A stretch of DNA of 64,000 bases from an uncultured virus (IMG/VR IMGVR_UViG_3300017938_000552). Taxonomy: Duplodnaviria > Heunggongvirae > Uroviricota > Caudoviricetes. The translations under genes were made by a program, and so were the position numbers. The notes under the pieces were generated by a model. The model had not been told where the DNA came from. It saw only the letters and a list, made by a program, of their open reading frames with translations, and made no database searches. The stretch is taken from IMG/VR virus record IMGVR_UViG_3300017938_000552. The stretch is one strand, 5' to 3'. Shown piece after piece: positions 500 through 60,355 of this stretch. Position 1 is the stretch's first letter. The number at the start of each line of letters is the position of its first letter.

Positions 500-500
500 T

Positions 501-769: not shown

Positions 770-786
770 TATTTAAATGTTATGAT
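770..786 (-). promoter_or_regulatory. class B BRE-TATA promoter ATCATAACATTTAAATA
   Basis: Repeated motif, upstream of start at 740. Confidence 0.7.
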
Positions 787-790
787 ATAG

Positions 791-1156
791 CTATACAAGC
801 AACCTGCTTAACAATCTCTGATGGTGATGATATACTAGCGGTCTGCCACTAACTCTATCACCAGCCAAAGGCTGAATTCTCTCAGGTATTATTCTATAAG
901 TTCCCTGTTGATAAAGAATACTATTACGATTAATTCTTGATAGTTTTCCCTTTGTCTTAACTATATAATATTCCCTACAGACCTCAATAACTCTTCCCGT
1001 TGTCCTACCTCTTGGTGTGACATAACTAATTCTATCACCAATTTTGTGTGGCTTGTGCCTACCCTCTCCATGAGTAGCTTCACCTTTTTTTGTAAAATTT
1101 TTTGGGGCTGGTTTATATTTATATAGTTTTTCTCTAAATATATTAAATTTTGGCAT
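791..1156 (-). CDS. basic KOW/SH3-like protein, paralog of 1711..2121
   Basis: GExTHGEGRHxPHKxGDxISY...G.V..V..E.Y.VK...NRNSILY in both copies. Confidence 0.65.
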   Translation of the reverse strand: MPKFNIFREKLYKYKPAPKNFTKKGEATHGEGRHKPHKIGDRISYVTPRGRTTGRVIEVCREYYIVKTKGKLSRINRNSILYQQGTYRIIPERIQPLAGDRVSGRPLVYHHHQRLLSRLLV

Positions 1157-1188
1157 TACGAAAAACTACCATTCTAAACCCAATTACC

Positions 1189-1476
1189 TCACAGTTCACC
1201 AAACTTATGTAACCGATTATATGTTCTTTCACAGTTTTTATTAAACTGCCTCATTTTTGCCAATGCAGATTTACCTGCTTTTATATGTTCTATAGCAACC
1301 CAAAGAGGGGCAGATTCTGAGTGATAGTTTACATCCTCAAAACTGTCGAAAAGTTTTCTAAGTTTTACAGGTCCATCTGACACCTTGGCTTTCATACCTG
1401 CCTTGAGCATACCACCATAATCGAAGTTGGCACTAAAACGTTTTCCTGCTTTGAATTTTGCCATTCTTCCTACCAT
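1189..1476 (-). CDS. hypothetical basic protein
   Basis: ORF in operon context with GGTGA upstream. Confidence 0.55.
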   Translation of the reverse strand: MVGRMAKFKAGKRFSANFDYGGMLKAGMKAKVSDGPVKLRKLFDSFEDVNYHSESAPLWVAIEHIKAGKSALAKMRQFNKNCERTYNRLHKFGEL

Positions 1477-1481
1477 TCAAA

Positions 1482-1694
1482 TCACCTGTGTTTTGTCCTT
1501 ATCCAGAGAACATATCTAGGTTTTGGAATTTCATGGGGGATTTCTTCTGCTGTTACCCTAGAACCAAAGTAGCGGTTATTGAATTTTCTTTGTGCTGTCT
1601 TAGCTTCTAGTTTTGTCCTATATGAACCAGCTAAGAAATAATCTGTGCCATTGAAGGCTCTCTTACCATTTTCACTATACCAACTTGAAGGCAT
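1482..1694 (-). CDS. small basic protein (paralog family)
   Basis: SWY...KRAFNGTDY...TKLEAK...RYVLWIR; GGAG RBS. Confidence 0.65.
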   Translation of the reverse strand: MPSSWYSENGKRAFNGTDYFLAGSYRTKLEAKTAQRKFNNRYFGSRVTAEEIPHEIPKPRYVLWIRTKHR

Positions 1695-1710
1695 TGTTTT
1701 TTTCTCCTAC

Positions 1711-2121
1711 TTACTTTTTCTTCTTTGGCGTTAGTTTTGGTCTTGCCTTGTATTTTCCATACTGAGACTTGAACTTCTCTAACCTTTCGTTTTCTTTTTC
1801 CTTACCGAATTCATATGCCTTTTTGGTATTCTCAGCCATCTGTTTCATTCCACCAAGGAATGTTCCAAGGCTGTAGAGGATGCTGTTGCGATTGACTTTT
1901 GTAACATTTCTGCCGTTCTTGACATAATAGAATTCTTTGTGTACACTGACTATAACACCCTGCTTTCTACCACTTGGGGCACGATAGCTAATCTTATCAC
2001 CTACTTTGTGCGGGTGATGTCTGCCTTCGCCATGTGTCTCTTCACCAAGTTCCCTGAAGTCTCTGGGTGTTGGTCTATAGCTCTTTTCTAAGCCCTCTCT
2101 GAATTTTGTTCCTCTACTCAT
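1711..2121 (-). CDS. basic KOW/SH3-like protein with Lys-rich tail
   Basis: Paralog of 791..1156; promoter at 2153-2169. Confidence 0.7.
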   Translation of the reverse strand: MSRGTKFREGLEKSYRPTPRDFRELGEETHGEGRHHPHKVGDKISYRAPSGRKQGVIVSVHKEFYYVKNGRNVTKVNRNSILYSLGTFLGGMKQMAENTKKAYEFGKEKENERLEKFKSQYGKYKARPKLTPKKKK

Positions 2122-2152
2122 AACATTATCACAGTAATAGTTATAACGATAA

Positions 2153-2169
2153 TATATAAATGTTATGAT
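2153..2169 (-). promoter_or_regulatory. class B promoter ATCATAACATTTATATA
   Basis: Repeated motif 32 nt above ATG at 2121. Confidence 0.7.
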
Positions 2170-2174
2170 AAGGA

Positions 2175-2688
2175 TTAATTAGAATCTAACCTGCCACAAT
2201 CATAGTCATTTATTCTTTTTAATATTTCTTCTATGGAAATAGGTCGGAAATCCCAAGCGTCTACCCCACAGTTGATATAATATTTATTGTGTTCTTTACG
2301 AATTTTCCAAAGGTTGTGGACATGACCAATTAGATTATATTTATGGTTAGAATTGAATGGATGATGTTCCAGCCACCATGTTTTTCCCCCTAACTCTATA
2401 ATCATGGAATTTATGATAGTTTTGGCTGAATTATTATTATCATGGTTCCCTCTGATCAGGATCATATTACCATTAAGTCTATCCATCCAATCTTGTGCTT
2501 TAATACCATCTTTTTCTTTTAAAACAAAAATCACCCAAATGAAATACAGTATCTTCATCCTTTACTCTCTCATTCCAATTCTTTATAATAGTTTCATTCA
2601 TGTGATATATATCTTTAAAAGGTCTATTAGTATATTTAATTATATTTGTGTGGTTGAAGTGTGAATCCCCTGTAAACCAAAATCTCAT
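2175..2688 (-). pseudogene. calcineurin-like metallophosphoesterase split by a one-base frameshift near 2520
   Basis: DxH and HLGD motifs in 2500..2688; RGNHD and GHVH in 2175..2558; frames join at TTT AAA A GAA. Confidence 0.8.
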
Positions 2689-2709
2689 TTTATATTCTCC
2701 TTGTTATTT

Positions 2710-3588
2710 TTAAAGACTAATTGTAATATTCATTATTTCCTTGAACTTGTTTGCATTAAGCCTGAGTGAAACTTCAGATATGCCACATGAATATGCTAAT
2801 TCTCTCTGGGTCATATTTAATGACATACACACATTTACTATGTACAATATGGCACATGCTATAGAAATTGGTGACTTTCCAACAACTTGTTTTTTCTCAG
2901 CTATGATGTCATACATAGCCTTTGCCATCTGTTCAACATCACCCGGAAGATTGTTTTTTGCAACAATTCTGGACACAAGTAATAGAACACGGTTTTGTGG
3001 GTCTTTTCTAGTAATAAAACCAGATTGTTTCATTGAGCTATAATATTTACCAATTATTGTTTTATCAATATTTGCCCTATCTGCAAATGCTCTAAGATTG
3101 ATAGGTATTCCATGTTGCATATATCCAGCATAAACACAAGCACAAAGTGTTCCATAGATAGTTTTTCCATGTAGGTATTTACCCCTTGCCGCTTTTTTAT
3201 AAATGCCCATAGCTGTGTCTGCTATTGGATTTGGAATTTCTAAAACTTCTTTCATTCTCAGAAGCTGGATATTTGCCTTGAAGATGTTCCGTTCCACACT
3301 GGAATTTATCTTTTTTATTGAATCTATCTTTTTGAGCCTAGACCACTTCTTTGTTTTTCTGAAGCCATCTGAGTAAGTAAAGCCAATTTCTGTTGTTGAA
3401 CCTCTGCCAATTGGATCAAATGGAGAACCAGCCGTTGTACTTTCTTTAGGCTCACCAAAATCTTTCCAATTTGGGTCTTTAGATGGCAGATAACCATATA
3501 CCAGACCACAATTTGGGCAAACAAGTTCACCATCAGCACCTGTGACAAGTGGCACTCTACATTCATCGCATAGAATATCTATTGACAT
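2710..3588 (-). CDS. tfb: archaeal transcription initiation factor TFB homolog
   Basis: N-terminal CxxC..CPNCG Zn ribbon, VERN linker, two cyclin repeats (GKT.., GKSP), C-terminal TQRELA..GISEVSLR HTH; ATG at 3588 follows GGTGA. Confidence 0.93.
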   Translation of the reverse strand: MSIDILCDECRVPLVTGADGELVCPNCGLVYGYLPSKDPNWKDFGEPKESTTAGSPFDPIGRGSTTEIGFTYSDGFRKTKKWSRLKKIDSIKKINSSVERNIFKANIQLLRMKEVLEIPNPIADTAMGIYKKAARGKYLHGKTIYGTLCACVYAGYMQHGIPINLRAFADRANIDKTIIGKYYSSMKQSGFITRKDPQNRVLLLVSRIVAKNNLPGDVEQMAKAMYDIIAEKKQVVGKSPISIACAILYIVNVCMSLNMTQRELAYSCGISEVSLRLNANKFKEIMNITISL

Positions 3589-3589
3589 A

Positions 3590-6500
3590 TTAATCACCAA
3601 ATAGCTCATCTACATTTTCAAAACCCTGTATATTCGCCCAAGAAATACCAGCCGCATTTAAAATGCTCTCAAGCGGTGAACGTAGGGTTCTATCAACAAC
3701 CCACTCATAATCTGGTGTTATACCTAATTTTTTCACTCTATCAGCATCCAAATAAGCCACCCACTGATTATAAGGTAAGTTACCACAACTCTTGGCTTTG
3801 AAATAACGCACCATATCCCCACCGATAATACTTTCTCCTATATATTTGTTGCCCCATATTGCACCATCATAATATTCACCATCCACTTCTATGCCTTTTT
3901 CAAATGGTTTAGAAAGGTTTATGGGAATTGTGATCTGGTCAAGATCATATTCCTTGGTGGCGATGTCTTTCATAATTTTCTGGATGTTTGAAATTATTTT
4001 TGTTGTATCATCCATTAAAATCTGATCAATAACTTCTTTTTGAAGTTTGCGTGTAACCTCTGAAGTGTTACCACGAACATAATCAAAACCTTTGATCAAG
4101 ATGTAATCACAGGGGTCGTTATTCTCCCTAATAATACGCTGACCATAACGCTTTTTAGCACCTTCCTCAGAATTTTTAGCTTTGATGAAAAGTGTTGTTG
4201 AAGCAAACCTATCTTCTTTAATGTGGAATTTTGAATCAACAATTCCCTTTTCCTTTGCCCAAAGTGTTAGCTCATCGTTGACTTCTGCAACTAAACCCTC
4301 TACCTCTTCCATTGTAGAGCCTAAGAAGATGGAATCTGTATTATGTAGCAAAACACCACCACTTGAAAATTGATGATTTTCCGTTTCTAGATCATAAACA
4401 TTTACGTTACTATAAATTCCTAAATCAGTAATTTGTTTTACTTCATGATCTTGATGTAAACGTAAATCTGTTATGTTTTTAACAATTCTAATTTTTCTAA
4501 GGTATTGTTTTGATTTTCTCTGCCCAACATAAACCATATATCTGCTTTTTTGCCCTATAATTTTATATAAGATATGTAAACCAAACATTATTAACTCTGT
4601 TTTACAGAATTCCATTATTTTTTCTTTATTCTTATCGGAACCATCACCATAAATAAAACCGTCTATAAATTCTGAAATTGCGTTTGTATCCGCATTAAAT
4701 ATAAGTTCTGGAATTTTCTTATTGTGGTTTGAATCATAACACATTAGGAAATATTCTAAAGCACCACATTTAATAGGGTTATGAATATTTAACCTATATA
4801 CTATACCACCAGACGTTTCATTTGATGGATATGACGAGATTTTACAGTCAAAATGTAATTTTCTTTCTAATATATCCTTTGAACGAATCAATAAATCTTC
4901 CTGTTGCCCATCAATATGTACAGCCACCTTGTTACATGTTTTTCTATAATCACCTGCTGTTCCATCTGCACAGAAATATCCCAATAACCAAGCAATTTCA
5001 CTATCATAAAAGGTTCCTTTTGGCAAAGAAGAATATTTTATCTCACCAAGAATATCACCCGTTGAAACTTCCCTTGGTTTTGCTGGCGATCCATCACTTC
5101 TGATCAGCGAATGATCCTCTGTAACTTCAACAACACCATCATATGTTTCGACACGGAACATTTTTTTGGTGACTGTCTTTTTTATTAATTTATTTACTTT
5201 TGTCCAACCAGATTCTGTCAGAGTCGTATCATTGGCTTTAACGTCTTGTATAGGAACAACATCTAACCTGTTATTTCTAAGTATTAAGGTTGGTGAGTTT
5301 TCAATAACACTATCACCATAAATCGTATCATGTCCAGCTTTCTTAGCACGATCCTTAACACGGTTGAGTCCTTCACCAGCCGTCTTGAGTACGAAATCAC
5401 CACGTTCCTTGCTGTATATTCGGCTACCCTTGAAAGCGAAATATCCCCAAGCACCAGATAGGAAAGTCTTTACATTTGTTTGGGTAACTTTGGCTGTTTT
5501 ATATTCCTCAGTACCCGGAGTGTATTTCTTAACTTCAGCATCCCAGAAGTCTCGTTCCTTTGATAGATATGTAATGACGGATGGTGCAAGTTTGCCCCAG
5601 ATGTCGGGGGATGTTTCTTTCGGGAATGAAAGTAATATTGACGGATAGTACCTACTCATGTCAAGAACCGTTATCTTTCTGTAAAGACCCATCGATGGGG
5701 TGAAAACAACGCCACCAAATTCCAAATCTTCAGTGTCCTCAGACATATATGATGTTGGGAGTGTAAATCCAAGTTGGTGGGCTGTACTGAGCCACAGTGG
5801 ATCGTGACGTTTTATATGTGATGTTGTATATTCTAAATTGGCTAGACCAACAAAATTCTTCTGCCCCCAAAAGTTTCGGAAAATATCATACTGAATCCAT
5901 TTACCATCCGTGACACGTTTGAAACCATTAGCCAACATTACACAATATTCGACATCTTTTTTGTTATATTTAATGAAGTTATCTCTTTGTGTTTTATCAG
6001 TATACATCTCTATTTTGAATGTATCAGAAACCATATTCACAGCTTTTATTATATCTTCTTTAACAACAACTTCCTTTAATCTGTTCCCCAAGGAAGATTT
6101 TATCTTTTTATATGCTCCTAATAAATCAAAAATCTCACAACGAGATAAATCTAGAGTTTCCTTGAACTTTGCCTTTGCCCATGCTTGGAAATAATCAATG
6201 TCGAATTTGATGTTCCAACCAGAAATAATATCTGGATTTGCATTATCTAAATACTGTTTTGTAAGATCAAAAAGATTCCTAGCATTTATAACACGAACCA
6301 AGTCCCAATCTGGTTCCAGTTGAGTATGTGTTTGTTGGAAAACTCTATCATCCAGACATATACTATAATATTTTTTGTATACAGAATCGTGGAGTGTTAC
6401 AGCAATTACAGGTTGTGTTGGATTTCTCATGTTCGGGAATCTGCCCTGTGATAAAACCTCAATGTCAATAAATACTACACGTGGTTGAATGATCTTGTTC

Positions 6501-6889
6501 ACAGGCACTATTGTTGTGTAAGGAATAACTACTGTGTTAATTGGCGTGTAGAAACAGGATAGGATGCCTGTATCTATCAACAACCTTTGAATGTAATTTA
6601 CATCAGCCTCATGTGGTGCTTTGAACTTTACACGATTATTACCTACAGAAGCTGGATCGGTTGCTATGATCTTTATGTCTGGTTTTCCATCCATATGGAG
6701 AAAACCACCCAGAGTCTCTACAATCCAAGGTTCGGTTGGAATTGCCTCTGTTGATGGAACATAGAGATATGGAACGAAACCTGTTATGAAAACTTTTTTC
6801 TTTACAAGAGATGTGGTGTCCCTTACCCACATATCAATATTCCCAGATTCACCATTATAATGGGCAGTTAAATATTGATACTCAGGCAA
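3590..6889 (-). CDS. polB: family B DNA polymerase with intein
   Basis: Exo I DIE, Exo II GWNIKFD, Exo III YNKKD, motif A LDMSRYYPS, motif C YGD|TDS, KKRYG, IKG. Confidence 0.95.
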   Translation of the reverse strand: MPEYQYLTAHYNGESGNIDMWVRDTTSLVKKKVFITGFVPYLYVPSTEAIPTEPWIVETLGGFLHMDGKPDIKIIATDPASVGNNRVKFKAPHEADVNYIQRLLIDTGILSCFYTPINTVVIPYTTIVPVNKIIQPRVVFIDIEVLSQGRFPNMRNPTQPVIAVTLHDSVYKKYYSICLDDRVFQQTHTQLEPDWDLVRVINARNLFDLTKQYLDNANPDIISGWNIKFDIDYFQAWAKAKFKETLDLSRCEIFDLLGAYKKIKSSLGNRLKEVVVKEDIIKAVNMVSDTFKIEMYTDKTQRDNFIKYNKKDVEYCVMLANGFKRVTDGKWIQYDIFRNFWGQKNFVGLANLEYTTSHIKRHDPLWLSTAHQLGFTLPTSYMSEDTEDLEFGGVVFTPSMGLYRKITVLDMSRYYPSILLSFPKETSPDIWGKLAPSVITYLSKERDFWDAEVKKYTPGTEEYKTAKVTQTNVKTFLSGAWGYFAFKGSRIYSKERGDFVLKTAGEGLNRVKDRAKKAGHDTIYGDSVIENSPTLILRNNRLDVVPIQDVKANDTTLTESGWTKVNKLIKKTVTKKMFRVETYDGVVEVTEDHSLIRSDGSPAKPREVSTGDILGEIKYSSLPKGTFYDSEIAWLLGYFCADGTAGDYRKTCNKVAVHIDGQQEDLLIRSKDILERKLHFDCKISSYPSNETSGGIVYRLNIHNPIKCGALEYFLMCYDSNHNKKIPELIFNADTNAISEFIDGFIYGDGSDKNKEKIMEFCKTELIMFGLHILYKIIGQKSRYMVYVGQRKSKQYLRKIRIVKNITDLRLHQDHEVKQITDLGIYSNVNVYDLETENHQFSSGGVLLHNTDSIFLGSTMEEVEGLVAEVNDELTLWAKEKGIVDSKFHIKEDRFASTTLFIKAKNSEEGAKKRYGQRIIRENNDPCDYILIKGFDYVRGNTSEVTRKLQKEVIDQILMDDTTKIISNIQKIMKDIATKEYDLDQITIPINLSKPFEKGIEVDGEYYDGAIWGNKYIGESIIGGDMVRYFKAKSCGNLPYNQWVAYLDADRVKKLGITPDYEWVVDRTLRSPLESILNAAGISWANIQGFENVDELFGD
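4340..5311 (-). mobile_element. 324-aa intein with LAGLIDADG endonuclease in PolB motif C
   Basis: Starts SVIENS after YGD; block B VTEDH; LAGLIDADG-like WLLGYFCADG and FIDGFIYGDG; VYDLETENHQF; ends LHN before Thr. Confidence 0.93.
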
Positions 6890-6925
6890 GAGAACACCAG
6901 AAACAGAAACTAAACAGATTTATAG

Positions 6926-6942
6926 TATTTAAACCTTTCGGT
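6926..6942 (-). promoter_or_regulatory. class A BRE-TATA promoter ACCGAAAGGTTTAAATA (polB/tfb operon)
   Basis: Same core at 8071, 8245 and 11179. Confidence 0.8.
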
Positions 6943-7117
6943 GTGTATTTTCCTTTTTATCTGTTATAGAAATTCTATGAATCAACAAGGGACATTTTAC
7001 TTCCACTCCAAACGGACACTCCTCAAATATATTTCCATCTGGATTGGGTTGACCACACCACTGATTGAGTGTTGTGGGAGATTCAAACTGAATCAAATAC
7101 TTACATTTTTTTACCGT
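6929..7117 (-). CDS. 62-aa four-Cys protein, possible ACG start
   Basis: Open frame VKKCKY...WCG...ECP...KCP; first canonical start (TTG) lies after the first Cys. Confidence 0.45.
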   Translation of the reverse strand, partial: TVKKCKYLIQFESPTTLNQWCGQPNPDGNIFEECPFGVEVKCPLLIHRISITDKKENTHRKV

Positions 7118-7671
7118 ATATTATCCCATCCTGTTTTACCAACTCTACTTGAAATCAAATCGGCAGAAGAAACTATACTAGCCAAGAGTGTGTCTGGATA
7201 ATAGCCTGTTACACTCCAACCACCCATATGACTGAGTATGGCTAGGCGTATATTCTGAGAAAAGTTGAAACCAAACTCATCCCAATCTAAAATGGGAATT
7301 TCGGCATGATCAACAGGTCCAATAGTGTTATGTGGCTTGGTAAATATCAAACTGTTTGGATTATGTTCATATGCACCATTAACCAGAATATACATATCGG
7401 ACTTGCCAGCATCGTGGAAAATTATAGAAATCATAAGTTCATCCAAATCCATACTTTCAAACACACAGGCATCATAAATGGATTGACCAATAAATATCAT
7501 TTCTTCTGTATGGGCACGAAGTCCACCTTTAAAGAAATGGTGGATATTACGACTTGCTGGTGCATCATCAAAACCACGTTTCTTAATTATTTCAAAATAT
7601 TCAAATGACCACGTTCTAAATTGTCTGTCGTTTATGCTCTCTATACTTTTTTCTATATTTATTTTATCCAT
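7111..7671 (-). CDS. HD-domain phosphohydrolase (YhaM-like HD domain)
   Basis: APAS..HH...GGL..HT, HDAGK, DH, AILSHMG, ADL. Confidence 0.85.
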   Translation of the reverse strand: MDKINIEKSIESINDRQFRTWSFEYFEIIKKRGFDDAPASRNIHHFFKGGLRAHTEEMIFIGQSIYDACVFESMDLDELMISIIFHDAGKSDMYILVNGAYEHNPNSLIFTKPHNTIGPVDHAEIPILDWDEFGFNFSQNIRLAILSHMGGWSVTGYYPDTLLASIVSSADLISSRVGKTGWDNIR

Positions 7672-7683
7672 TTATACCACCTT

Positions 7684-8040
7684 TTACTTTCCAGCTTGAT
7701 ACTCATTCCAAGTAAGTGTTTGAGAACTTATTATTTTGGGTTCACCATCTATATAAACTTCTTGACCAAACAACACCCATTTCACAATATTTAAATTACC
7801 AGTAATTGTGGAATGTGTCTTTAATACTGTTTTCGTTCCATTATCATATTGAGTGATTGTATATTCTATACGTTCTGTTACACTAACCAATGGTGGAATA
7901 TATTGAAGTCTATACAAGACACCAAAGAATATGGCAACTATAAATAAAATAATAAAAATTTTTACAATCTTTCTCCTATTATTTGGTACAACAACGTTGG
8001 TGTTAGTATAATCATCGGTAGTATTTGTATAGTCCGACAT
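7684..8040 (-). CDS. single-pass membrane protein
   Basis: RRK followed by hydrophobic helix; promoter 8071-8086. Confidence 0.6.
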   Translation of the reverse strand: MSDYTNTTDDYTNTNVVVPNNRRKIVKIFIILFIVAIFFGVLYRLQYIPPLVSVTERIEYTITQYDNGTKTVLKTHSTITGNLNIVKWVLFGQEVYIDGEPKIISSQTLTWNEYQAGK

Positions 8041-8070
8041 CGAATATCCCAACACAAATGATTTCTGAGC

Positions 8071-8086
8071 ATTTAAACCTTTCGGT
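8071..8086 (-). promoter_or_regulatory. class A promoter
   Basis: ACCGAAAGGTTTAAAT. Confidence 0.8.
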
Positions 8087-8091
8087 TAAAA

Positions 8092-8221
8092 TGGTGTGGG
8101 TGTAGGATGGTCCTTGGTTACTTCGCACCTTTCACGGATTTCCACCATCAATAGCCCTAGAGAGATTACTTTCATCGACCTTTGGGTGCTGTCGTTCCCT
8201 TCAGGATGTCCCGTTTCCCAC
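8092..8221 (-). ncRNA. candidate ~130-nt rod-like structured RNA ending in ACCA
   Basis: Own promoter 24 nt upstream; nested pairs GUGGG/CCCAC, GGGA/UCCU, UCCU/AGGA, GCACC/GGUGC, UCGAU/AUUGA; 3' ACCA then UUUU; locally GC-rich. Confidence 0.55.
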
Positions 8222-8244
8222 AAATAACAGAATCGGTCTGGAAA

Positions 8245-8261
8245 TATTTAAACCTTTCGGT
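8245..8261 (-). promoter_or_regulatory. class A promoter driving the ncRNA candidate
   Basis: ACCGAAAGGTTTAAATA. Confidence 0.8.
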
Positions 8262-10367: not shown

Positions 10368-10637
10368 CTACGATGTACCATATAAAGGTTTCGGTTTAGC
10401 AAATAATTTCTTGTTTTCCGCTTCTAATCGTCTAAAGAAAGCCTGTCTCTCCTTTGTCATATAACCATTGCCTTCACACCAGAGACAAAGACTATAATCT
10501 GTCTCAAATGTTCCATCTCTCCCAAAGTGGAAATATCCTTCACCTTTACAGTGTGGGCAGACTATAGCACCTTCTGGTATCTTTATGGTTTCACGATAAA
10601 TTTCGCCCTGTCTTACAGGATGAACATAATCAGACAT
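10368..10637 (-). CDS. DnaJ-type CxxCxGxG zinc finger protein
   Basis: CPHCKGEG and CLWCEGNG. Confidence 0.7.
   Translation of the reverse strand: MSDYVHPVRQGEIYRETIKIPEGAIVCPHCKGEGYFHFGRDGTFETDYSLCLWCEGNGYMTKERQAFFRRLEAENKKLFAKPKPLYGTS
10380..10395 (-). promoter_or_regulatory. class A promoter inside the 3' end of the upstream gene
   Basis: ACCGAAACCTTTATAT; implies the next gene starts at TTG 10348. Confidence 0.6.
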
Positions 10638-47939: not shown

Positions 47940-47940
47940 T

Positions 47941-48201: not shown

Positions 48202-48207
48202 TTTATC

Positions 48208-51406: not shown

Positions 51407-51448
51407 TTTTTAAATCACCAGAAACAACACATTCTAACAATAGACATT

Positions 51449-52120: not shown

Positions 52121-52122
52121 TT

Positions 52123-52791: not shown

Positions 52792-53299
52792 GTTGCTTTT
52801 TGTTAAGTATCATTGGGTATAGGAACCATACGCCAAGTCCCTTGTTAATCATCCACAGCCAATCATGTGGATTTGGTGTTGTCATACCAGAAGCCAACCA
52901 AGCACGTACTAGTGGATAGTAACCTGTAAATGTGAAGATATAAAATGTTGAAAGTTCAATCAAATATAAAGCAATGCTCAGTTTGGTTAGATGTATGAAT
53001 TTAAACAAATAATTACAGACAATAAGTGCTACAAACAATCCGATAACCACAACAATATACTGCATAAAATAGGAATTTATATTTGTCTCATATGTCATAT
53101 ACTGCCAAATGGATTCATAAAGATCATTTCCAAAAGCACCCAATAAATAAGCTAACATAAGGGCATAGACAATGTTTGTATATCTAGATATTTTATAGAA
53201 AGCCACAAAACAGAAAACTGCATATGTTACAAATGACCAAACGTGAAGCTGATAACCACCAATATGAACTTCTAATAATAAAAGATTATAAATCCACAA
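52748..53299 (-). CDS. multi-pass membrane protein (family member 3; possible ATA start at 53314)
   Basis: HVWS, NDLYE, PNPHDWLWMINKGLG. Confidence 0.7.
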   Translation of the reverse strand: MWIYNLLLLEVHIGGYQLHVWSFVTYAVFCFVAFYKISRYTNIVYALMLAYLLGAFGNDLYESIWQYMTYETNINSYFMQYIVVVIGLFVALIVCNYLFKFIHLTKLSIALYLIELSTFYIFTFTGYYPLVRAWLASGMTTPNPHDWLWMINKGLGVWFLYPMILNKKQHEERTKKHEQPKTK

Positions 53300-53310
53300 C
53301 CAGAAGTCGA

Positions 53311-53871
53311 TTATTGACGTTTTCTCTTTCCCCCCTTCAATCTTAAATTTCGCTGTTCCTTACTCAATATAAGCGGATATAAAGCAAAAGCACCCAAACC
53401 CTTATTGATCATCCATAACCAATTATGTGGGTCTGGTGTTTGTCCACCAGACAAGAACCAAGGTCTAAGTACCTCATAATGCCCTGTGAAATATAATACA
53501 AAAAATGAAAGAATTTCAAGAGAAATTAAAATAACAAAAGTTTTATTTATTCTTAAAAATACTGTTTTTCTATTAACGACAAACAAAAGGACAACAAGAG
53601 AACTTAGAATTATCATATCTTGTGGTATTAACACTGTTCTGGATGGAATCTGTGCAAAGGCTGTCCAGATAGTTTCATAAAAATCATTTGCTATTATACC
53701 AACTAAAAGAGTTAATAATGCACTAATAACAATATTATAATACTTGGAGATTTTATAAAATGCAACTAAACAAAAGGCAATATATACAACCAAAGACCAC
53801 ACGTGGATATTACCAAGAGAAGGTATTGTGGAAAGTAAAAAAAGATAAAATTCTTCAAACATTAGAGCCAT
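53311..53871 (-). CDS. multi-pass membrane protein (family member 4)
   Basis: HVWS, NDFYE, PDPHNWLWMINKGLG. Confidence 0.7.
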   Translation of the reverse strand: MALMFEEFYLFLLSTIPSLGNIHVWSLVVYIAFCLVAFYKISKYYNIVISALLTLLVGIIANDFYETIWTAFAQIPSRTVLIPQDMIILSSLVVLLFVVNRKTVFLRINKTFVILISLEILSFFVLYFTGHYEVLRPWFLSGGQTPDPHNWLWMINKGLGAFALYPLILSKEQRNLRLKGGKRKRQ

Positions 53872-54278
53872 TGCCCTTTATTCTTTCTCTTGGGTGCTAA
53901 TCCTGTTAAGTATCCTAATGCACCAACTGTTAATGAATAGTTCCAGAAAGCGGCAACCAGAATTGCACAAATATCCGCTATAATTAATGGTAAAATACTA
54001 ACAAGAGATGAAAGAACTAAATAATTTACGGCAGTTCCACCTATACCACAAATAATAGCATAATTACCAAAACTCCAAATTTTCTTATAAAAACTTGCAA
54101 TTGGACCTGAATCATCAGAAATCTTATCCAAACCGAGAAGAATTAATCTAGACATTGGGTTGTCAATTGTTTGTGTAGATTCATTTACCTCAATAACCTT
54201 CTTATTCTCAGCTACTTTGAGTTGTGACTTTAAGTTTTCAACTTGTTGCTTGAGTAATTCTAATTCTGTTGTTGACAT
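53862..54278 (-). CDS. GtrA-like membrane protein with N-terminal coiled coil
   Basis: YAIICGIGGTAVNY...AAFWNY. Confidence 0.6.
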   Translation of the reverse strand: MSTTELELLKQQVENLKSQLKVAENKKVIEVNESTQTIDNPMSRLILLGLDKISDDSGPIASFYKKIWSFGNYAIICGIGGTAVNYLVLSSLVSILPLIIADICAILVAAFWNYSLTVGALGYLTGLAPKRKNKGQWL

Positions 54279-54293
54279 TAAAAAACCTTCAGT

Positions 54294-54410
54294 TTATGCC
54301 TTAGATAATTGTTTCCTTAACTTTGCCAAACGTACTCTAGCAACAACCTCCCAGATGAATATACCACCTAGCATTGATGCCGCTACAGTAAATATGAAAT
54401 CTGTTTCTAT
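54294..54410 (-). CDS. 38-aa single-TM peptide with ATA start
   Basis: GAGGTGA RBS 7 nt above ATA, which overlaps the upstream TAG. Confidence 0.45.
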   Translation of the reverse strand: METDFIFTVAASMLGGIFIWEVVARVRLAKLRKQLSKA

Positions 54411-54544
54411 TGTCTTTTCACCTCTTTTTTCTTTTCTTCCTCAGATACTGCTTTCTCTAAAGCGGTTTTAATAAAAGAATGGATGTTGATTCCAAGTTTG
54501 GATATTCTTATAACTAGCTCGTCTGGTATATAATATGTTCCCAT
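54407..54544 (-). CDS. 45-aa ribbon-helix-helix-like protein
   Basis: MGTYYIPDELV...GINIHSFIKTALEKAV; promoter 54578-54594. Confidence 0.55.
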   Translation of the reverse strand: MGTYYIPDELVIRISKLGINIHSFIKTALEKAVSEEEKKKEVKRQ

Positions 54545-54577
54545 CTTACAATCGTGTTATAATAATAATAACATAGA

Positions 54578-54594
54578 TATATAAATGTTATGTT
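54578..54594 (-). promoter_or_regulatory. class B promoter heading the membrane/sugar operon
   Basis: AACATAACATTTATATA. Confidence 0.7.
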
Positions 54595-54607
54595 TTCCCT
54601 GACTTTT

Positions 54608-54925
54608 TTAGAATACAGATATTATAGACTCAAACATGCTTTTCTTTTTCTTTTGTGGTGTTGGTTTCTTCTTTGATGTGAGTGGCTTTACAATAGCACT
54701 TCCTATTCTAACAGCCCTGTTACCCTTGATGTTGGTTTCTATCCACATATCTGCTTTTACTTTGCTTGTTTCTACATACGGTTTGAATTTTCTTTCTGTA
54801 TGTATTGCTGTCTTAACCAGTGGCTTGACAAGACCCCTCATCCGTTTTGGTGATCTAACATAAACTTGAGCAAGAGTCTGTGTAGCTTGTTCACCCAATT
54901 CATCTATTCTATTTCTTTTAGACAT
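54608..54925 (-). CDS. basic hypothetical protein
   Basis: Lys/Arg-rich; ATG about 22 nt below a TATA box. Confidence 0.6.
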   Translation of the reverse strand: MSKRNRIDELGEQATQTLAQVYVRSPKRMRGLVKPLVKTAIHTERKFKPYVETSKVKADMWIETNIKGNRAVRIGSAIVKPLTSKKKPTPQKKKKSMFESIISVF

Positions 54926-54947
54926 GGTTGATCATACTATATATGTG

Positions 54948-54964
54948 TTTATAAAGGTTATGTT
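54948..54964 (-). promoter_or_regulatory. class B promoter
   Basis: AACATAACCTTTATAAA. Confidence 0.65.
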
Positions 54965-55037
54965 AATGTATATTTGTTAACGGTTGATCATTACTGTTAA
55001 ACCATAATCCTTATATAATAGTCTCGTACACTATGGA

Positions 55038-55754
55038 TTGATTGAAATGCCAAAGAAAGGAGAACACCCATCAGATGTAACAAGAAAACTACAGAGTGAG
55101 GCTAAGAAAGGTAAGCATCTCTCAGACACAACAAAAAAGCTATTAAGTGAGATTAATAAAGGTGAGAATAACCCCATGTTTGGTGTGACAGGTGAAAAAT
55201 GCCCTGCGTTTGGTATACATTTAACTGGTGAGAAAACCTCTATGTTTGGCAAACATCACACAAAGGAAACAAAAAAACTAATTGGTGATGCTAATAGAGG
55301 TGAAAAAAGTCCTATGTTTGGTAAAACTGGTGGGTTATGCCCTAATTATGGCAGACATCACACGCAAGAGGAAAGAGTAAAAATAAGTGTAGCACACCAA
55401 CTACGTGTTCATCACACCAAAGGTGGAGGTACATCCCACCTAGTTACTATAGCACTCATTAGTAGTCGATTAGAGAGTCTGGGATGGAAAGTTGAAAGTT
55501 GGTGTACAACAGGAGAGAGATTTATCACGATAGATAAACACAAATACTCACCTGATATTTATGCTACAAAGGATAATAATAATCCAATTTTGGTTGAGGT
55601 TGGAAGTTGCACAACACAAAAACTATGCCACTTAATGTCCCATTATCCTGTGGTATTACATGTGTCAAAGCTGAAAATGGAGTTAGAATTTCAATTCTCT
55701 AAGAATGAAATGTCCACACTATATAAATGGAATTTATTTAACAGGCTACTTTAA
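55038..55754 (+). CDS. NUMOD3-repeat PD-(D/E)XK-like homing endonuclease
   Basis: GENNPMFG/GKHHT repeats; TSHL...GERFI...PDIYA...VEVGSC. Confidence 0.75.
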   Translation: MIEMPKKGEHPSDVTRKLQSEAKKGKHLSDTTKKLLSEINKGENNPMFGVTGEKCPAFGIHLTGEKTSMFGKHHTKETKKLIGDANRGEKSPMFGKTGGLCPNYGRHHTQEERVKISVAHQLRVHHTKGGGTSHLVTIALISSRLESLGWKVESWCTTGERFITIDKHKYSPDIYATKDNNNPILVEVGSCTTQKLCHLMSHYPVVLHVSKLKMELEFQFSKNEMSTLYKWNLFNRLL

Positions 55755-55845
55755 CTACTTAATCTCAAATGTTTGCTAAACATACCATCTATTAGGCTTG
55801 TCCTATTATTTTCGTCTTTTATTTCTCTAGGTATGTTTAATCACA

Positions 55846-58800
55846 CTATATACTTGAAAAGAGGCGTGTGAAGAAACCCGATAAGTAACCAAATATCCAT
55901 CTGATCCAGTCGGACACAACGGAGTATATAAACATAGCGAAACCTGTCAACACGTTTATGAGTCCGTACAATGTTTGGAAGTCATTAAGTGCAAGTGAAA
56001 GTAAACCTATACCCATTGTCTCCTGCCGAGAATCTAGGCTTTGTATCCAAACAATGAAGATAACAAATGGCATAAAGATTATCAAATTAGTACCACCAAA
56101 GAGGTTCCAAATGTTTCCTAAACCAAAACTGATACTACCTACAACATTACCGCCATAGGTTATAGCTGTACTAGTACCATTCAAAAGATTTATCATTATA
56201 GTAACAAGTGCAATTATAAAACTTCCCATTATTGAAATCCAAGTAAATAGGAACACTGCGAAGTTAAAGAACATCGTTCCCAACGTTGTAACAAATGACA
56301 CCATCATAGTTATTGACGCCACGAACCATATACCAATAGATGTTATCATAGCCCAAATAGCCACTACACCGCCACCAATACCAAAAAGGTTGAATACTGG
56401 CTGAAGTAATATGGTAAGTGGGCTTAGGCTTGGAACAAAGTTTGCAGTAACATAGACTGTTAATGTGGCGTTGTTTGCCGAAGGACCAGCAACAAATGGT
56501 AATAACATAAACAGTTTAAGATGATATGTCTGATTGCCAGTGGCTAAGTAAGGAGTGAAAACAACCTGATATGTACCATTTACGATAGCAGGGTCTTGGG
56601 CAACTAAAGTCTTATTCCAAACCTCCACTCTAGTAAATTGTGCATCTGGTGGTGAAACCATAACTGTATACAGATTAATGTTTGCAGGAGAAATTTCATA
56701 AAAAACACCACCTGTTATGGCTATCTGAACACCTAGAAAGACCTGTGGTGTTGTTGTCGTTATGGTTGCAACTAAATCGGATATAACATCACAATAGGCT
56801 GTTTGCATTTTAATTATGCCTGAAGAACCAGCACCATTCACAGCCTCAAGATATAAGTCTAAATCAGCCGTAGTTGGGAAATTCCATTTTGTTTCAATCT
56901 TGAATGTTGCCGTTCCAAGTGTGCCTGATTTAGCCCAGACACAGTGTGCAGTGTCAAGATTTATTATTGTTGAGTTGGAAATTATTGACCAAACAGGAAC
57001 AGTATTTAGGCTTGCACCATGAACCTTGAAATAAATCTGTGCCCCTTTCATAGCTGTAATATATATATCCGTGACATCATTGGGTGAATTTACTGTGGTT
57101 GTAGATGCTACAAAAGTGTAATACTTATCCATGCTATAAATATTCCTGAACGTTGAAATTCCAGCACTCAAGTCTGGTACTACCAGATAATTTAGTGTTG
57201 GTTCATCACCTGTCAAAAGACCATTTACTACAATTGTGTATGGTGGTCCAGCACCTGTCATCCAACCTACACCTGTTGGTGAGAAAGATTGATAAACAGA
57301 TATTATCGGTGTTCCTGTTGTTATACCAGAACTAGTAATACCTACTGTAACACCACTCCATGAAGATGTTGAATTTCTATATATATTGTAATATATTTTG
57401 TCCGTTACTGGATCATTCATCCAAATAACAGAGATATCCTCATAGCTATTTCTTGAGATTGTTGGTGATGGTGCTGTACCCAAGGAAGTATATAGAATTG
57501 TTTCTGCTGTGATAGCCCCCATTTCACCACTATAAAAATCTGAATCTATTTTGTTTGTCGATGTTGTATAAGCAATAAAAACATCATTATCTTTATTGAC
57601 ACAACTGAATGATGAGAATGATTTCAGAGAATATGAGGTTTGAGAAACAGTATTAAATACAGATGTTCTTAAACACAACATATAATTGCTAATTGAAGTT
57701 GCACTACTATCACTATCAAAACAAACATCAAATATACCTGTTGTAAAGATAAGTTTGGCACTCTTACCACCCACTGATGGAAGTAGATATGATATTGTAC
57801 TCATAGTATTTATGTCTATTTTTGTCAATACTGGTGTTGTATAATTATATACAGTATATAGATATGTACCATCATTTACTATGGATGTTGGATTTGCATG
57901 ATAACTAGGAAGAACAGACCAATTAGCTACGGTTAACATAAATGGTGTTATATTTATCTTTACGATCTTTGAATCTACACCAATGTATATGAAACTACCA
58001 TATGCCGAACTACTATAAACATTCGCACCATAACCTGCACCACTCCATGTGCCTGTGGTGGATAATGTTGTAGTATTCATCTGTATAGCCGCACAATTTG
58101 ATGCTTGTGACATACTTATATAGACATTACCATCTGCGGCATCATACATAATCGTGTTTGTACCTACATAAATATAGCTTGTCACATCCTTGGAATCATA
58201 TGTCATAGTAGATTCGAGAATTTTCACTACAACAAGATGATTAGTTGCCATATTTCTTGCTAATGCATACAAATATGTGCCATCTGAACACAAGCCAAGA
58301 GCATAATCAAGATTATAACTTGGGTCTGCTTTGTATGATTGTGCTGTTTTCATTGTTACCGCATTTACTTTAGTTATTACTAAGTTTCCGTATCCTTCAC
58401 AGCCAATATATAAGAAACCAGCATCATATACCAGTGTATTATTTGCGGGAAGTGTTGAATTATATTGCCAAACATCAACGGGGAAAAGACCATCTACGGT
58501 TAGTTTTTTAATGACTAATGGACTTTGATATAGTGATTCATAAAGGTACGTTCCATCACTAACTGCATTATTAAGTGAATTTTCCGTGTTGGTAGAATTA
58601 AATAAGACATTCTGAATTTCATAACCAGAATCAAGAAAACCATAAGAACTTGTACTTACCACAAAACTTGTGACAGACTTCCCACCAACAAAGGATACTG
58701 GTGATGTTAATTGCTTATCTTTAGCAACATTTATAATAGTTTTGGTTGATGTGTGATCACCATATACAACCGTACAGTTGAGTTGTAATGTATGAGATGG

Positions 58801-60108
58801 GTCTGTTTGATATGTAATACCAATATTATTTAGTTCTGTTGAACTTAGCGGTGATGTAAAATTGTAATATATAATATCTCTTCCTGTTATTGGGTCTGTG
58901 GTATAATACCAGCTATTAACATACGAGTGCCAAACAAATATTGCAGGTAGAGTTTTTATATAATTTAGTGTGCCAACACCACCATAGTAATCATCCCCAC
59001 CATATCTATCATGTGATGCTATACCATCAACATAATATTCTAAGTCTGAACTAAAGTTTTCCCACATGGTAGCATCATTATAAGTGATCTTGGTTATCAC
59101 TTTTGCATTTGAAATACCATGTTCCGCATTATATTTGTAAATAGCACCTAAAACATCACCATTAAGTGGCACTTGTATTGTGAGAGTTGTACCATCAGAA
59201 TAATAAATTATAAATGTTCCATAAACAGGTCCACTACCAGTAGAATACATGGTGGCTGATGCTGTAAAGGTACTTATGCTATTCAACTGGATCAAACAAT
59301 TTTCTGACTGAGAACTATATCCACTATCAAAAACAATACTTGAAAGTGTCTTTATACCCTGTTCAAGAATTGAACCAAGTGGTTCTCCATCTAAACCATA
59401 TGCAGAGTTAAAAGACTTAGTTTTTAGTGGTGTAGAATCGCTCCCATAAGCAACGATGACATGACCATCAACTGTTGGTGTTGGGCAAACACCATATTGT
59501 ACAAAAGCAAGTGATCTCTCAAGTTCTATTGGCATAGGGTATCCAACTGTGCCATTGTCACGGTCACTTCTCATAACATATGCGGCTGTATATGTAGCAT
59601 TTCCACCTATAACACCGTTTGAGTTACAATAACCAATCCATAAATATCCAGCAGTATCTATGCAAACTGATGGTGCTGTTACATAGTAATTATTTGTTTT
59701 TATTTTTGTCTCAGAGATTAACCAAACAATACTACCATTCGTTTGTGTTATTCCATAACGATAGTATAATACACCTGCGGTGGTCACACGTACATAAGCA
59801 ACATACGGACCATTAGAAAACACAGAAAATAGATTACCAGAAGCAACACCTGTCACAGCAGTATAAATTGTGTTAAATGTGATATAGTCTGGTGTGGATG
59901 TCCATTTCATGTCTATGCCATCTGAATAGAAGTACCAAGTCAGACCTGAAGCATTAAAAGTGTGTCTTTGGAAGTTATATCCAAAAGCCGTTGGTGATGT
60001 TGTTGTGATTGATGGGGTAGAGTGTGCAATCTGTTGTGGCATAATAAATGCACTCATAATGAAAATGAGTAACACAACTAAAGATTTAAACTTCATATTA
60101 TCTACCAC
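55846..60108 (-). CDS. 1420-aa secreted, C-terminally membrane-anchored surface protein (putative virion spike/adhesin)
   Basis: Signal peptide, S/T/Y-rich beta repeats (SDGTYLY x2, NDGTYLY), many N-x-S/T sequons, long hydrophobic C-terminus. Confidence 0.7.
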   Translation of the reverse strand: MVDNMKFKSLVVLLIFIMSAFIMPQQIAHSTPSITTTSPTAFGYNFQRHTFNASGLTWYFYSDGIDMKWTSTPDYITFNTIYTAVTGVASGNLFSVFSNGPYVAYVRVTTAGVLYYRYGITQTNGSIVWLISETKIKTNNYYVTAPSVCIDTAGYLWIGYCNSNGVIGGNATYTAAYVMRSDRDNGTVGYPMPIELERSLAFVQYGVCPTPTVDGHVIVAYGSDSTPLKTKSFNSAYGLDGEPLGSILEQGIKTLSSIVFDSGYSSQSENCLIQLNSISTFTASATMYSTGSGPVYGTFIIYYSDGTTLTIQVPLNGDVLGAIYKYNAEHGISNAKVITKITYNDATMWENFSSDLEYYVDGIASHDRYGGDDYYGGVGTLNYIKTLPAIFVWHSYVNSWYYTTDPITGRDIIYYNFTSPLSSTELNNIGITYQTDPSHTLQLNCTVVYGDHTSTKTIINVAKDKQLTSPVSFVGGKSVTSFVVSTSSYGFLDSGYEIQNVLFNSTNTENSLNNAVSDGTYLYESLYQSPLVIKKLTVDGLFPVDVWQYNSTLPANNTLVYDAGFLYIGCEGYGNLVITKVNAVTMKTAQSYKADPSYNLDYALGLCSDGTYLYALARNMATNHLVVVKILESTMTYDSKDVTSYIYVGTNTIMYDAADGNVYISMSQASNCAAIQMNTTTLSTTGTWSGAGYGANVYSSSAYGSFIYIGVDSKIVKINITPFMLTVANWSVLPSYHANPTSIVNDGTYLYTVYNYTTPVLTKIDINTMSTISYLLPSVGGKSAKLIFTTGIFDVCFDSDSSATSISNYMLCLRTSVFNTVSQTSYSLKSFSSFSCVNKDNDVFIAYTTSTNKIDSDFYSGEMGAITAETILYTSLGTAPSPTISRNSYEDISVIWMNDPVTDKIYYNIYRNSTSSWSGVTVGITSSGITTGTPIISVYQSFSPTGVGWMTGAGPPYTIVVNGLLTGDEPTLNYLVVPDLSAGISTFRNIYSMDKYYTFVASTTTVNSPNDVTDIYITAMKGAQIYFKVHGASLNTVPVWSIISNSTIINLDTAHCVWAKSGTLGTATFKIETKWNFPTTADLDLYLEAVNGAGSSGIIKMQTAYCDVISDLVATITTTTPQVFLGVQIAITGGVFYEISPANINLYTVMVSPPDAQFTRVEVWNKTLVAQDPAIVNGTYQVVFTPYLATGNQTYHLKLFMLLPFVAGPSANNATLTVYVTANFVPSLSPLTILLQPVFNLFGIGGGVVAIWAMITSIGIWFVASITMMVSFVTTLGTMFFNFAVFLFTWISIMGSFIIALVTIMINLLNGTSTAITYGGNVVGSISFGLGNIWNLFGGTNLIIFMPFVIFIVWIQSLDSRQETMGIGLLSLALNDFQTLYGLINVLTGFAMFIYSVVSDWIRWIFGYLSGFFTRLFSSI

Positions 60109-60148
60109 AGGTTTAACGGTATGATCTGTATATTATTTACACTAAATA

Positions 60149-60163
60149 TATATAAATGTTAGT
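60149..60163 (-). promoter_or_regulatory. class B-like promoter of the surface protein gene
   Basis: ACTAACATTTATATA; a second copy at 60289-60305. Confidence 0.55.
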
Positions 60164-60355
60164 ATAAAAAACAACATTCAAAATACCACCTATATCATAG
60201 CTTTTTCACAACATTTTAAAAAGACATATATAGATTATATTAAAAATATTTTTATGAAAAAACCATCAATAATAAGTAATATTGTTTACATATAAATGTT
60301 ATTATAATATCTAGATAAATATATTTCTACTATTTACTAGTTTTATATAAGATAA

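Follow-up and report, generated by a model that had tools for sequence, protein, structure and literature searches.

We analysed a 64-kb stretch of DNA (the window) from the uncultured virus IMG/VR IMGVR_UViG_3300017938_000552, which has a G+C content of 35% and carries nearly every gene on the minus strand. The window encodes a transcription factor B (TFB) of 299 residues, whose gene, tfb (2710..3609, minus strand), overlaps by 20 nt the stop codon of a family B DNA polymerase gene, polB (3590..6889, minus strand), and its genes are preceded by recurrent pairs that combine a TFB recognition element (BRE) with a TATA box in which three different BRE words are used. The same sequence is present on two metagenome contigs of 162,755 and 193,754 bp (L001 and L002) with no mismatch over the 13,606 nt compared, and the element is therefore at least 194 kb in length. 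The preliminary description of the window had envisaged a motif census of the full genome. The census made here returned 49 sites, all but six of them in three families, and covers 98.7 kb of the at least 194 kb: 98,731 nt, in window coordinates −7287..0, 1..64000, 64001-70956, 73173-83190 and 101240-111708, further pieces outside the window having been recruited by pattern scans of a viral collection.

The census used a generic core consisting of YTTAWA preceded by C at −7, R at −6, any nucleotide, A at −4 and A at −3, which is a loose archaeal BRE. This core occurs 49 times on the 98.7 kb, and the window alone has 31 copies as against 4.4 in shuffled sequences. The dinucleotide at −6/−5 is GA at 17 sites, AT at 18, AC at 8 and something else at only 6, and AA, expected 10.3 times if the two positions were independent, is seen once. 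G at −6 is coupled with A at −5 (Fisher p = 1.5e-8) and with C at −8 (p = 1.4e-3), and T at −5 is coupled with CA at −2/−1 (p = 3.6e-4). Because the −6/−5 positions are nearly always GA, AT or AC, the sites form discrete families and not one continuum. The class A word, which has G at −6 and A at −3, is aaCCGAAAnn-TTTAWA; that of class B is tatCATAACA-TTTAWAta, with A at −6 and T at −5; and the class C word, looser than either, is ACAAAnn or (c)CACAAAC. The TATA box and its spacing from the BRE are the same across the three families and it is the BRE word that differs, at −10..−8, −6/−5 and −2/−1. The subset of class B that we call B1 has an additional conserved TAT at −10..−8. A few promoters fall outside the three families, such as CAGAATA-CTTAAA before an operon that contains replication factor C (RFC) genes. 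Judged from sequence, the sites are genuine archaeal BRE/TATA core promoters.

The exact class A pattern, ACCGAAANNTTTAWA, has eight copies in the window, all on the minus strand (6928, 8072, 8247, 10381, 11180, 13490, 14610 and 15669), where mononucleotide shuffles predict 0.06. With up to one mismatch, CCGAAANNTTTAWA is found 14 times where 1.37 +/- 1.16 would be expected, a count that none of 100 shuffles reached. Variants of the word lie at 16390, 17114, 17390 (TATA hexamer 17390-17395) and, on the plus strand, 34198. Class B, [CA]ATAAC[AC]TTTAWA, has nine exact copies, again all on the minus strand (772, 2155, 27052, 34181, 35492, 46785, 54580, 54950 and 60291), against 0.19 expected; with up to one mismatch, ATAACATTTAWA gives 14 matches against 4.98 +/- 2.15, among them the site at 60151 and an intragenic plus-strand match at 52733. 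The ACAAA group, class C, is represented at 14165, 21779, 29619, 61232-61244 and 61631, with further sites at 27878 (plus strand) and 47010, and its register is mixed, some sites reading ACAAAnn-TATA and others CACAAAC-TATA. Among the words found at −7..−3 before all 280 TTTAWA hexamers of the window, CATAA and CGAAA are the commonest (nine each), followed by ACAAA with four, tied with ATATG and TATTT. All three motifs had been proposed in the preliminary description, and the sites it listed are present; its positions are about 2 nt too low, the motifs lying on the minus strand, and it missed the class B site at 46785 and the class A variants at 17114 and 17390.

Class A accounts for 12 sites in the window, 11 of which form one block at 6.9-17.4 kb. 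The first, CCGAAAGGTTTAAA at 6928..6941, heads polB-tfb. The others in the block, likewise on the minus strand, are found at 8072..8085, before the gene at 7684-8055 and the small genes downstream of it; at 8247..8260, before the small open reading frame (ORF) 8086-8223; at 10381..10394, before about ten small ORFs running from 10.35 to 8.29 kb; at 11180..11193, before 10825-11121; at 13490..13503, before 13192-13467 and an operon of small ORFs that extends to 11.3 kb; at 14610..14623, before a DUF5658 gene (14216-14584, minus strand), one of two DUF5658 proteins encoded behind class A promoters; and at 15669..15682, before a dCMP deaminase gene (15150-15641, minus strand), these last two genes being assigned from Pfam. 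The variant CCGAAAGACTTATA at 16390..16403 heads 15959-16366, ACGAAAGATTTAAA at 17114..17127 heads 16898-17080 and 16492-16926, and ACGAAAGACTTAAA at 17390..17403 heads 17140-17355 in a cassette that is a near-duplicate of the one at 17114. The twelfth site, CCGAAACACTTATA at 34198..34211 on the plus strand, heads 34275-34613 (plus strand), and the class B site at 34181 adjoins it in divergent orientation. The small ORFs behind class A promoters come in runs without any family match. On the full 98.7 kb there are 17 class A sites, most of them before small ORFs, and beyond the window the class precedes a radical-SAM/ParB-N protein as well as further small ORFs. Pfam and ORF maps thus bear out the association of class A with polB/tfb and small accessory genes. 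The distance from the box to the start codon ranges from 16 to 63 nt (median 27) and is 28 nt or less at 9 of the 17 sites, which fits transcripts that would often be leaderless. Two features of layout were also noted. The class B (minus strand) and variant class A (plus strand) sites of the divergent pair at 34.2 kb (34181-34211) are only 5 nt apart, and at 13490-13525, as at 7950-8062 of locus L048, a second, inverted BRE word of the AACCGAAA type adjoins the class A promoter.

Class B has ten sites in the window, each of them on the minus strand, and the interval from 2.2 to 27 kb contains none. Two B1 sites serve a cluster of six small basic proteins (293..2121, minus strand; pI 10.0-10.7), two of which, of 136 and 121 residues, are paralogues with 51% identity: TATCATAACATTTAAATA at 772..783 heads a 79-residue basic protein (501-740), and the site at 2155..2166, which is conserved in relatives, heads the 136-residue protein (1711-2121) and the basic proteins downstream of it. 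A third B1 site, at 27052..27063, heads a 75-residue Cys-rich protein (26781-27008). Glycan operon 1 (hexapeptide transferase, DegT aminotransferase, epimerase and GT2) lies behind the site at 34181..34192, and an AATAACA site at 35492..35503 lies 116 nt upstream of a methyltransferase gene (34785-35375); the leader between the two contains a GCGGAA-rich 19-nt tandem repeat in 2.3 copies (35385-35427). The site at 46785..46796 falls within the 3' end of a GT2 gene (46740-47939) and heads an 82-residue membrane protein together with glycan genes, and the site at 54580..54591 heads a 45-residue protein gene, multi-pass membrane proteins and a long glycan operon. The variant ATAACCTTTATA at 54950..54961 heads a 105-residue basic protein (54608-54925), and the variant CTAACATTTATA at 60151..60162 lies 42 nt upstream of the gene for a 1420-residue protein (55846..60108, minus strand) with a signal-peptide-like N-terminus, a T/S-rich composition, 21 N-x-S/T sequons and a C-terminal hydrophobic cluster, for which Pfam, PHROG and PDB searches gave no match. 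The last site, TATAATAACATTTATA at 60291..60302, has no ORF of 40 or more residues within 130 nt; it lies 140 nt upstream of the site at 60151 and may be a second, tandem promoter for the 1420-residue protein gene or a small-RNA promoter. Beyond the window, a B1 site precedes two basic proteins and a 1160-residue protein. The assignment of class B to basic proteins, glycan operons and a surface protein therefore agrees with the Pfam matches, the pI values and the features of the 1420-residue protein. In this class the box lies 21-116 nt from the start codon (median 33) and within 28 nt at only 2 of 15 sites, and for six of the nine exact B1 sites the distance is 31-33 nt (including 772 and 2155, and −6466, −6161 and 106247 elsewhere on the element). 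From these distances, most class B transcripts would be expected to carry a short leader, some 8 nt in length. The B1 sites also have GAT(A/G) some 8-11 nt before the start codon, which may be a mini Shine-Dalgarno or an initiator signal.

Class C promoters lie 21-42 nt from the start codons of their genes. On the minus strand, ACAAACGTTTATA (14165..14177) heads 13518-14140, ACAAAGGTTTATA (21779..21791) heads a gene for a protein resembling single-stranded DNA-binding proteins (SSB) and RPA together with the module at 17.5-21.7 kb, ACAAACATTTATA (29619..29631) heads an archaeal-type S-adenosylmethionine (SAM) synthetase gene, CACAAACCTTATA (61232..61244) heads a NUMOD3 endonuclease gene (60356-61210) and ACAAACTTTAAA (61631..61642) heads 61248-61598. 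CACAAACCTTATA recurs on the plus strand at 27878..27890, upstream of an AN1 zinc-finger gene (27933-28400), with a second TATA box at 27905. The promoter CAGAATACTTAAA (21920..21932, plus strand), which has the generic core and belongs to none of the three families, heads an operon of RFC, PD-(D/E)XK nuclease, AAA and primase-like genes. A downstream-extended box, CCTTATATAATAGT, is common to both NUMOD3 genes (55010-55030, plus strand; 61224-61244, minus strand), and the AN1 gene promoter (27878-27900, plus strand) has only the CCTTATATAA part of it; the BRE words are CATAATC at 55010 and CACAAAC at 27878 and 61232. The promoter may travel with the NUMOD3 endonuclease gene.

The order of the two main classes along the window is far from random. 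The 22 sites, 12 of class A and 10 of class B, fall into only five runs (permutation p = 0.0016), and the two classes head different kinds of genes, so the segregation by gene set proposed in the preliminary description is upheld. A single continuous motif with no functional segregation, which would have spoken against the proposal, is not what the sites describe: the families are discrete and the runs are few.

The tfb product is complete and is conserved in the nine members of its viral clade. It has a zinc ribbon, a B-reader that diverges from the family and a pair of cyclin repeats; the latter match PF00382 in two stretches (E = 9.8e-22), and residues 102-293 align to the Pyrococcus woesei TFBc structures 1D3U/1AIS (E = 6e-18). 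The zinc ligands C14, C17, C31 and C34 are invariant among the nine clade members, and in an alignment of 50 sequences C17, C31 and C34 are invariant and C14 is present in at least 90%. The lineage is strongly divergent: of the 2344 matches that a library search gave at E <= 1e-3, no more than two attain 1e-30, at 52% and 33% identity, and none of the others exceeds 33% identity; a word-based search found 11 close relatives. The only match in a phage collection is the TFB of Sulfolobales virus YNP2 (23% identity), and a search of viral contigs returned no distinct locus. Residues 276-288, the helix of the helix-turn-helix (HTH) motif, read GISEVSLRLNANK, as the preliminary description had stated. 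We compared the columns of this helix between the nine viral sequences and 148 other TFBs in an alignment of 157 sequences, and found that its C-terminal half is specific to the clade: position 284 is I, L or N in the clade and N in 106 of the 148 others, which never have I or L; position 285 is N rather than R (119 of 148); position 286 is A or T rather than Y (85 of 148); position 287 is N rather than K (83 of 148); and position 288 is K rather than E (81 of 148). A three-residue insertion after R283 that phmmer had suggested is absent from MAFFT alignments of 50 or 157 sequences, and the differences are treated here as substitutions. The B-reader (residues 44-70) keeps W48 and departs from the family at E47 (N or H), R49 (K), R59 (T, where 130 of the 148 others have R) and D68 (G). 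Such an altered B-reader may change initiation or start-site selection rather than promoter choice, or turn the protein into one that competes with the host TFB. The tfb gene lies in one predicted transcription unit with polB, read from the class A promoter at 6928. A separate promoter within polB (TTTAAA at 3662) was considered and rejected, since it has no BRE, and in the relatives the 40-70 nt that precede tfb show no TATA-like hexamer.

Six short metagenome contigs encode TFBs that are 51-81% identical to that of the element. Where sequence is available polB precedes tfb, and this order is kept in L003, L006, L007 and L008. The exact class B 18-mer, TATCATAACATTTAWATA, occurs right after the tfb stop codon in four of the six relatives (L004, L005, L007 and L008), and L003 has the same word with one change (CATAGCA). 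The basic-protein homologues in L004, L005 and L007 are only 57-65% identical, and the exact preservation of the class B word beside them therefore indicates strong constraint on the word. Eighteen more distant TFB loci (L009-L026) have the canonical helix VTEVTIRNRYKE and no recurrent BRE word, and their TFBs are for that reason probably cellular.

We take these families to be real promoter regulons of an element of at least 194 kb, among which a TFB switch is plausible. Our preferred interpretation, to which we assign a probability of about 45%, is that the families are separately regulated, that the identity of each would reside in its extended BRE and that the element TFB is the candidate switch. 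Class A, a canonical strong BRE, would drive polB-tfb, the dCMP deaminase gene and the blocks of small accessory ORFs; class B would drive the small basic proteins, the membrane and glycosylation operons and the large secreted protein; and class C would drive the SSB-like module, the SAM synthetase and the homing endonucleases. The divergent TFB, whose gene shares a class A promoter with that of the polymerase, might then shift transcription between families in the manner of a sigma factor. Because tfb is expressed with polB from class A and is followed by a B- or C-type promoter, it is the obvious candidate for such a switch. The class-specific information, at −10 to −1 and in the 2-4 nt after the TATA hexamer, would correspond to the footprint of the C-terminal cyclin/HTH domain of TFB, so a selector would most likely act at the TFB step and not as an upstream activator. 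The sequences themselves show the motifs, the separateness of the families, the genes that they head and their preservation in relatives; a difference in timing and any class preference of the viral TFB are inferences. The more specific proposal of the preliminary description, that the host TFB reads class A and the viral TFB is a sigma-like selector which sends the host RNA polymerase to class B, and hence to the basic-protein, envelope and glycan genes, we regard as unlikely.

Published work supports the view of class A as a strong core. Positions −6 and −3 are the strongest determinants of TFB specificity, with G at −6 and A at −3 preferred (PMC5512572, PMC11065993). The strong BRE of Methanocaldococcus jannaschii, MRCCGAAAAG followed by TWTATATA, agrees with class A AACCGAAAGG-TTTAAAT at 9 of 10 BRE positions, the consensus being one from a cellular genome, drawn mainly from tRNA promoters, that may not be that of the element's host (PMC2602779). 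Viruses of the SIRV2 type resemble the element in placing a near-identical strong core (G at −6, A at −3, TTTAWATA) before many small genes and in using other promoters for core genes (PMC11065993). The element differs from them in having no conserved regulatory flank, in having second and third sharp families and in encoding its own TFB.

The absence of a flank bears on the possibility that small element-encoded regulators, bound at or near the BRE, read the class and either bring TFB to a BRE that is weaker (A at −6) or exert repression there, in the way of EarA, TFB-RF1 and the ara-box factor. Candidates would be the EarA-like winged-helix protein at 1..285 (minus strand), an HTH_45 protein encoded in the left flank of the window (L001) and zinc-ribbon proteins. 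The EarA-like gene is the last of the class B1 basic-protein cluster, class B1 keeps its additional TAT at −10..−8, the rescue of weak BREs by activators is documented (PMC5512572), and inverted repeats that overlap the BRE have been proposed as repressor sites in other archaeal viruses (PMC11065993). The information content of every family, though, is limited to an interval of about −10..+10 relative to the first position of the TATA hexamer and falls to background outside, with no operator-like conserved flank seen in any of them; nothing is conserved beyond −10 or +10, whereas the sites bound by EarA are found upstream of the BRE (PMC5512572). The Pfam match of the EarA-like protein is also marginal (PF07381, E = 9.1e-5), scoring 22.6 bits where the cut-off is 22, and an extended BRE of 9-10 nt is already read by TFB in M. 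jannaschii (PMC2602779). We therefore view the involvement of such regulators as rather improbable.

Several observations weigh against the interpretation that we prefer, and most of them would be expected if host factors alone read all the families. On that account the families would be strength tiers or copied cassettes, class A having maximal strength (G at −6) and B and C being other good archaeal words, and the viral TFB, not being specific to a class, would serve as a general booster or, in view of its altered B-reader, as a competitor of the host TFB that turns off host genes. First, classes A and B both fit one loose BRE consensus, C at −7, R at −6, n, A at −4 and A at −3, in the same register, a caveat that the preliminary description itself had raised. 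Second, its description of the recognition helix as altered is only half true. In HTH proteins generally, bases are recognised by the turn and by the helix at its N-terminal end (PMC4581349), and it is here that the viral TFB is canonical, keeping the family consensus at T267, Q268, E279, V280 and R283, with S278, S281 and L282 as minority but known residues; the clade-specific part is the C-terminal half (284-288). The B-reader, moreover, lacks the residues conserved elsewhere (E47, R49, R59 and D68). Third, position 284 varies between I/L and N within the viral clade while the class B word stays identical, and in the relative L006 the slot after tfb (2421-2478) holds a class C-like ACACAAAG-TTTATATA and not class B, which shows that B and C can take each other's place at one position. 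Fourth, genes of replication are found behind class A, behind class C and behind a generic promoter, so the classes do not simply divide replication from structure or the rest. Finally, virion genes (capsid, portal, terminase) were not recognised among the 98.7 kb of the element, and calling any class late is accordingly an assumption.

Both words are also used elsewhere. The exact class B 18-mer was found in at least 120 genome stretches, and of the 80 titled ones that were classified, 23 are archaeal and come from at least eight lineages. An ORF of 50 or more residues starts within 60 nt downstream of the word in 14 of these 23, against 16 of the 57 others, and the archaeal genes so headed are ordinary ones, encoding LSM, Lrp/AsnC, SPFH, a PAS sensor and a zinc ribbon like that of RPB9. 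As for class A, its exact 16-mer is present in 74 stretches of viral contigs, of which 73 lie outside the element, and is promoter-like in 39 of the 74. Since both words take promoter-like positions in archaea and archaeal viruses that are unrelated, they can evidently be used by cellular TFBs, and class B would probably need no special reader. The words belong to the general archaeal repertoire, and the element stands out by using them exclusively, densely and in a segregated manner, at about 130 words/Mb, compared with about 1/Mb in five genomes of the Asgard phylum.

The near-duplicate cassettes at 17114 and 17390 likewise favour a reading by host factors alone, as does the statement of a 2022 review that the promoter preference of virus-encoded TFBs is not established (PMC9501531); the literature on archaeal-virus TFBs annotates the genes, and we found no functional test in it. 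Three results are left unexplained on this account. Copying does not explain a class B word that is 100% conserved beside proteins only 57-65% identical, nor does the account explain why intermediate words are so scarce (6 of 49 sites) or why the classes segregate by module (p = 0.0016). We consider it doubtful.

A further possibility is that paralogues of the host TFB, or of TBP, read the families and that the virus plugs into the network of its host, in the way known for haloarchaea and for Sulfolobus TFB1/TFB2. Regulons of TFB paralogues exist (bioRxiv 10.64898/2026.09.06.749720), and both words are found in cellular genomes. In the five Asgard-phylum genomes, however, neither of the two is commoner than the reversed control, class A having 3-5 copies (control 0-8) and class B 0-4 (control 2-4). 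This explanation, which also leaves unexplained why the element keeps a TFB of its own, appears very unlikely to us.

The few clues to the host are mixed. The SAM synthetase is most like Thermoproteota clusters, and a search of genome contigs for loci related to it found none. A profile of the SSB-like protein has a match in one of 400 Asgard-phylum genomes and in none of 401 and 42 genomes of two other phyla. The Asgard match (L264, G478:C79, 1680-6174) is a four-gene module syntenic with window positions 17515-21746 (minus strand), on a 16-kb contig with 35.9% G+C that carries a tRNA-Thr gene (2734-2806) inside the module. Because a binned contig of 16 kb proves little, an Asgard-phylum host is only a weak hint.

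In phage sigma cascades (T4 gp55; SPO1 gp28, then gp33/34) an early viral factor redirects the host RNA polymerase. The likeness of the element TFB to these factors would be functional only, as they belong to another protein family and act in another domain of life. Within the TFB family, Sulfolobus TFB3 is reportedly tied to a promoter set in the UV response. Sulfolobus TFB2, which belongs to a cell-cycle wave, has its own promoter set, as is proposed here for the viral TFB; for TFB2 the BRE looked similar and only the BRE-TATA spacing differed, whereas the element keeps the spacing and varies the BRE word (bioRxiv 10.64898/2026.09.06.749720). Full-length TFBs are encoded, as in the element, by Italian rudiviruses, by Asgard viruses and mobile genetic elements and by Aoguangviridae/magroviruses (PMC9501531, PMC13700489, bioRxiv 10.1101/2021.07.29.453957, PMC10768690), and the magrovirus TFB lies beside polB, RFC and primase genes, an arrangement comparable to polB-tfb here (PMC10768690). 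In these reports the viral and mobile-element TFBs are gene annotations only, to which the element adds defined promoter families and polB-tfb-class B synteny. Magroviruses, at 90-100 kb, are among the largest archaeal virus genomes (PMC10768690), and the element is about twice that size. If the viral TFB were indeed a sigma-like selector of class B, it would provide the first case in an archaeal virus of an early-to-late cascade driven by TFB, and the element, at 194 kb or more, would be the largest archaeal virus-like genome so far. With a complete and deviant TFB, three separated BRE words and a conserved polB-tfb-class B order, it is a good test case for whether archaeal viruses use TFB as phages use sigma factors. 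Even without a switch, the three families provide a regulon map for an element of at least 194 kb whose genes are almost wholly unknown.

Many other ORFs of the window received no assigned function in a scan with Pfam and PHROGs, no tRNA gene was found in its 64 kb, and a phage collection contained no near DNA match to it. One 59-kb viral record of the element (G406) is labelled provirus, with an estimated completeness of 33%, and a search of that record for the HK97 capsid family PF05065 gave no match; the element may be a virus, a provirus or plasmid-like. The 321-residue SSB/RPA-like protein (20781..21746, minus strand) was considered as a capsid protein and rejected as such, because its AF2 model (pLDDT 85.3) has a tandem OB fold; Foldseek matches it to SSB/RPA proteins (E = 3e-8 to 4e-7), a protein atlas search gave no usable match, and an alignment of the family run against viral contigs returned only the element itself. 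PDB sequence searches with the 136-residue basic protein and the 1160-residue protein gave, respectively, only a chance-level match (E = 0.56) and no match. The RFC operon (21960-26784, plus strand) encodes two RFC-like AAA+ proteins and a PD-(D/E)XK nuclease, recognised with Pfam, and a primase-like protein matched in PHROGs. Glycan genes take up about 20 kb of the window and include an STT3/AglB-like protein, and Pfam also identifies two NUMOD3 endonucleases and the archaeal-type SAM synthetase.

The polymerase (PF00136, PF03104) is closest to those of haloarchaeal tailed viruses (28% identity) and has an intein-like insert, a weak PF14890 match at residues 556-850. For the relative L006, the single best segment reported against this polymerase covers only 246 of its 508 residues, and the intein content of polB may differ there. 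Among the products of the window's flanks (L001 15449-16897; L046 337-825, 5882-6616 and 8582-9949) is an HD-domain enzyme resembling CCA-adding/poly(A) polymerases, and the same regions encode Dam-like and N6/N4 DNA methyltransferases and the ParB-N/radical-SAM fusion.

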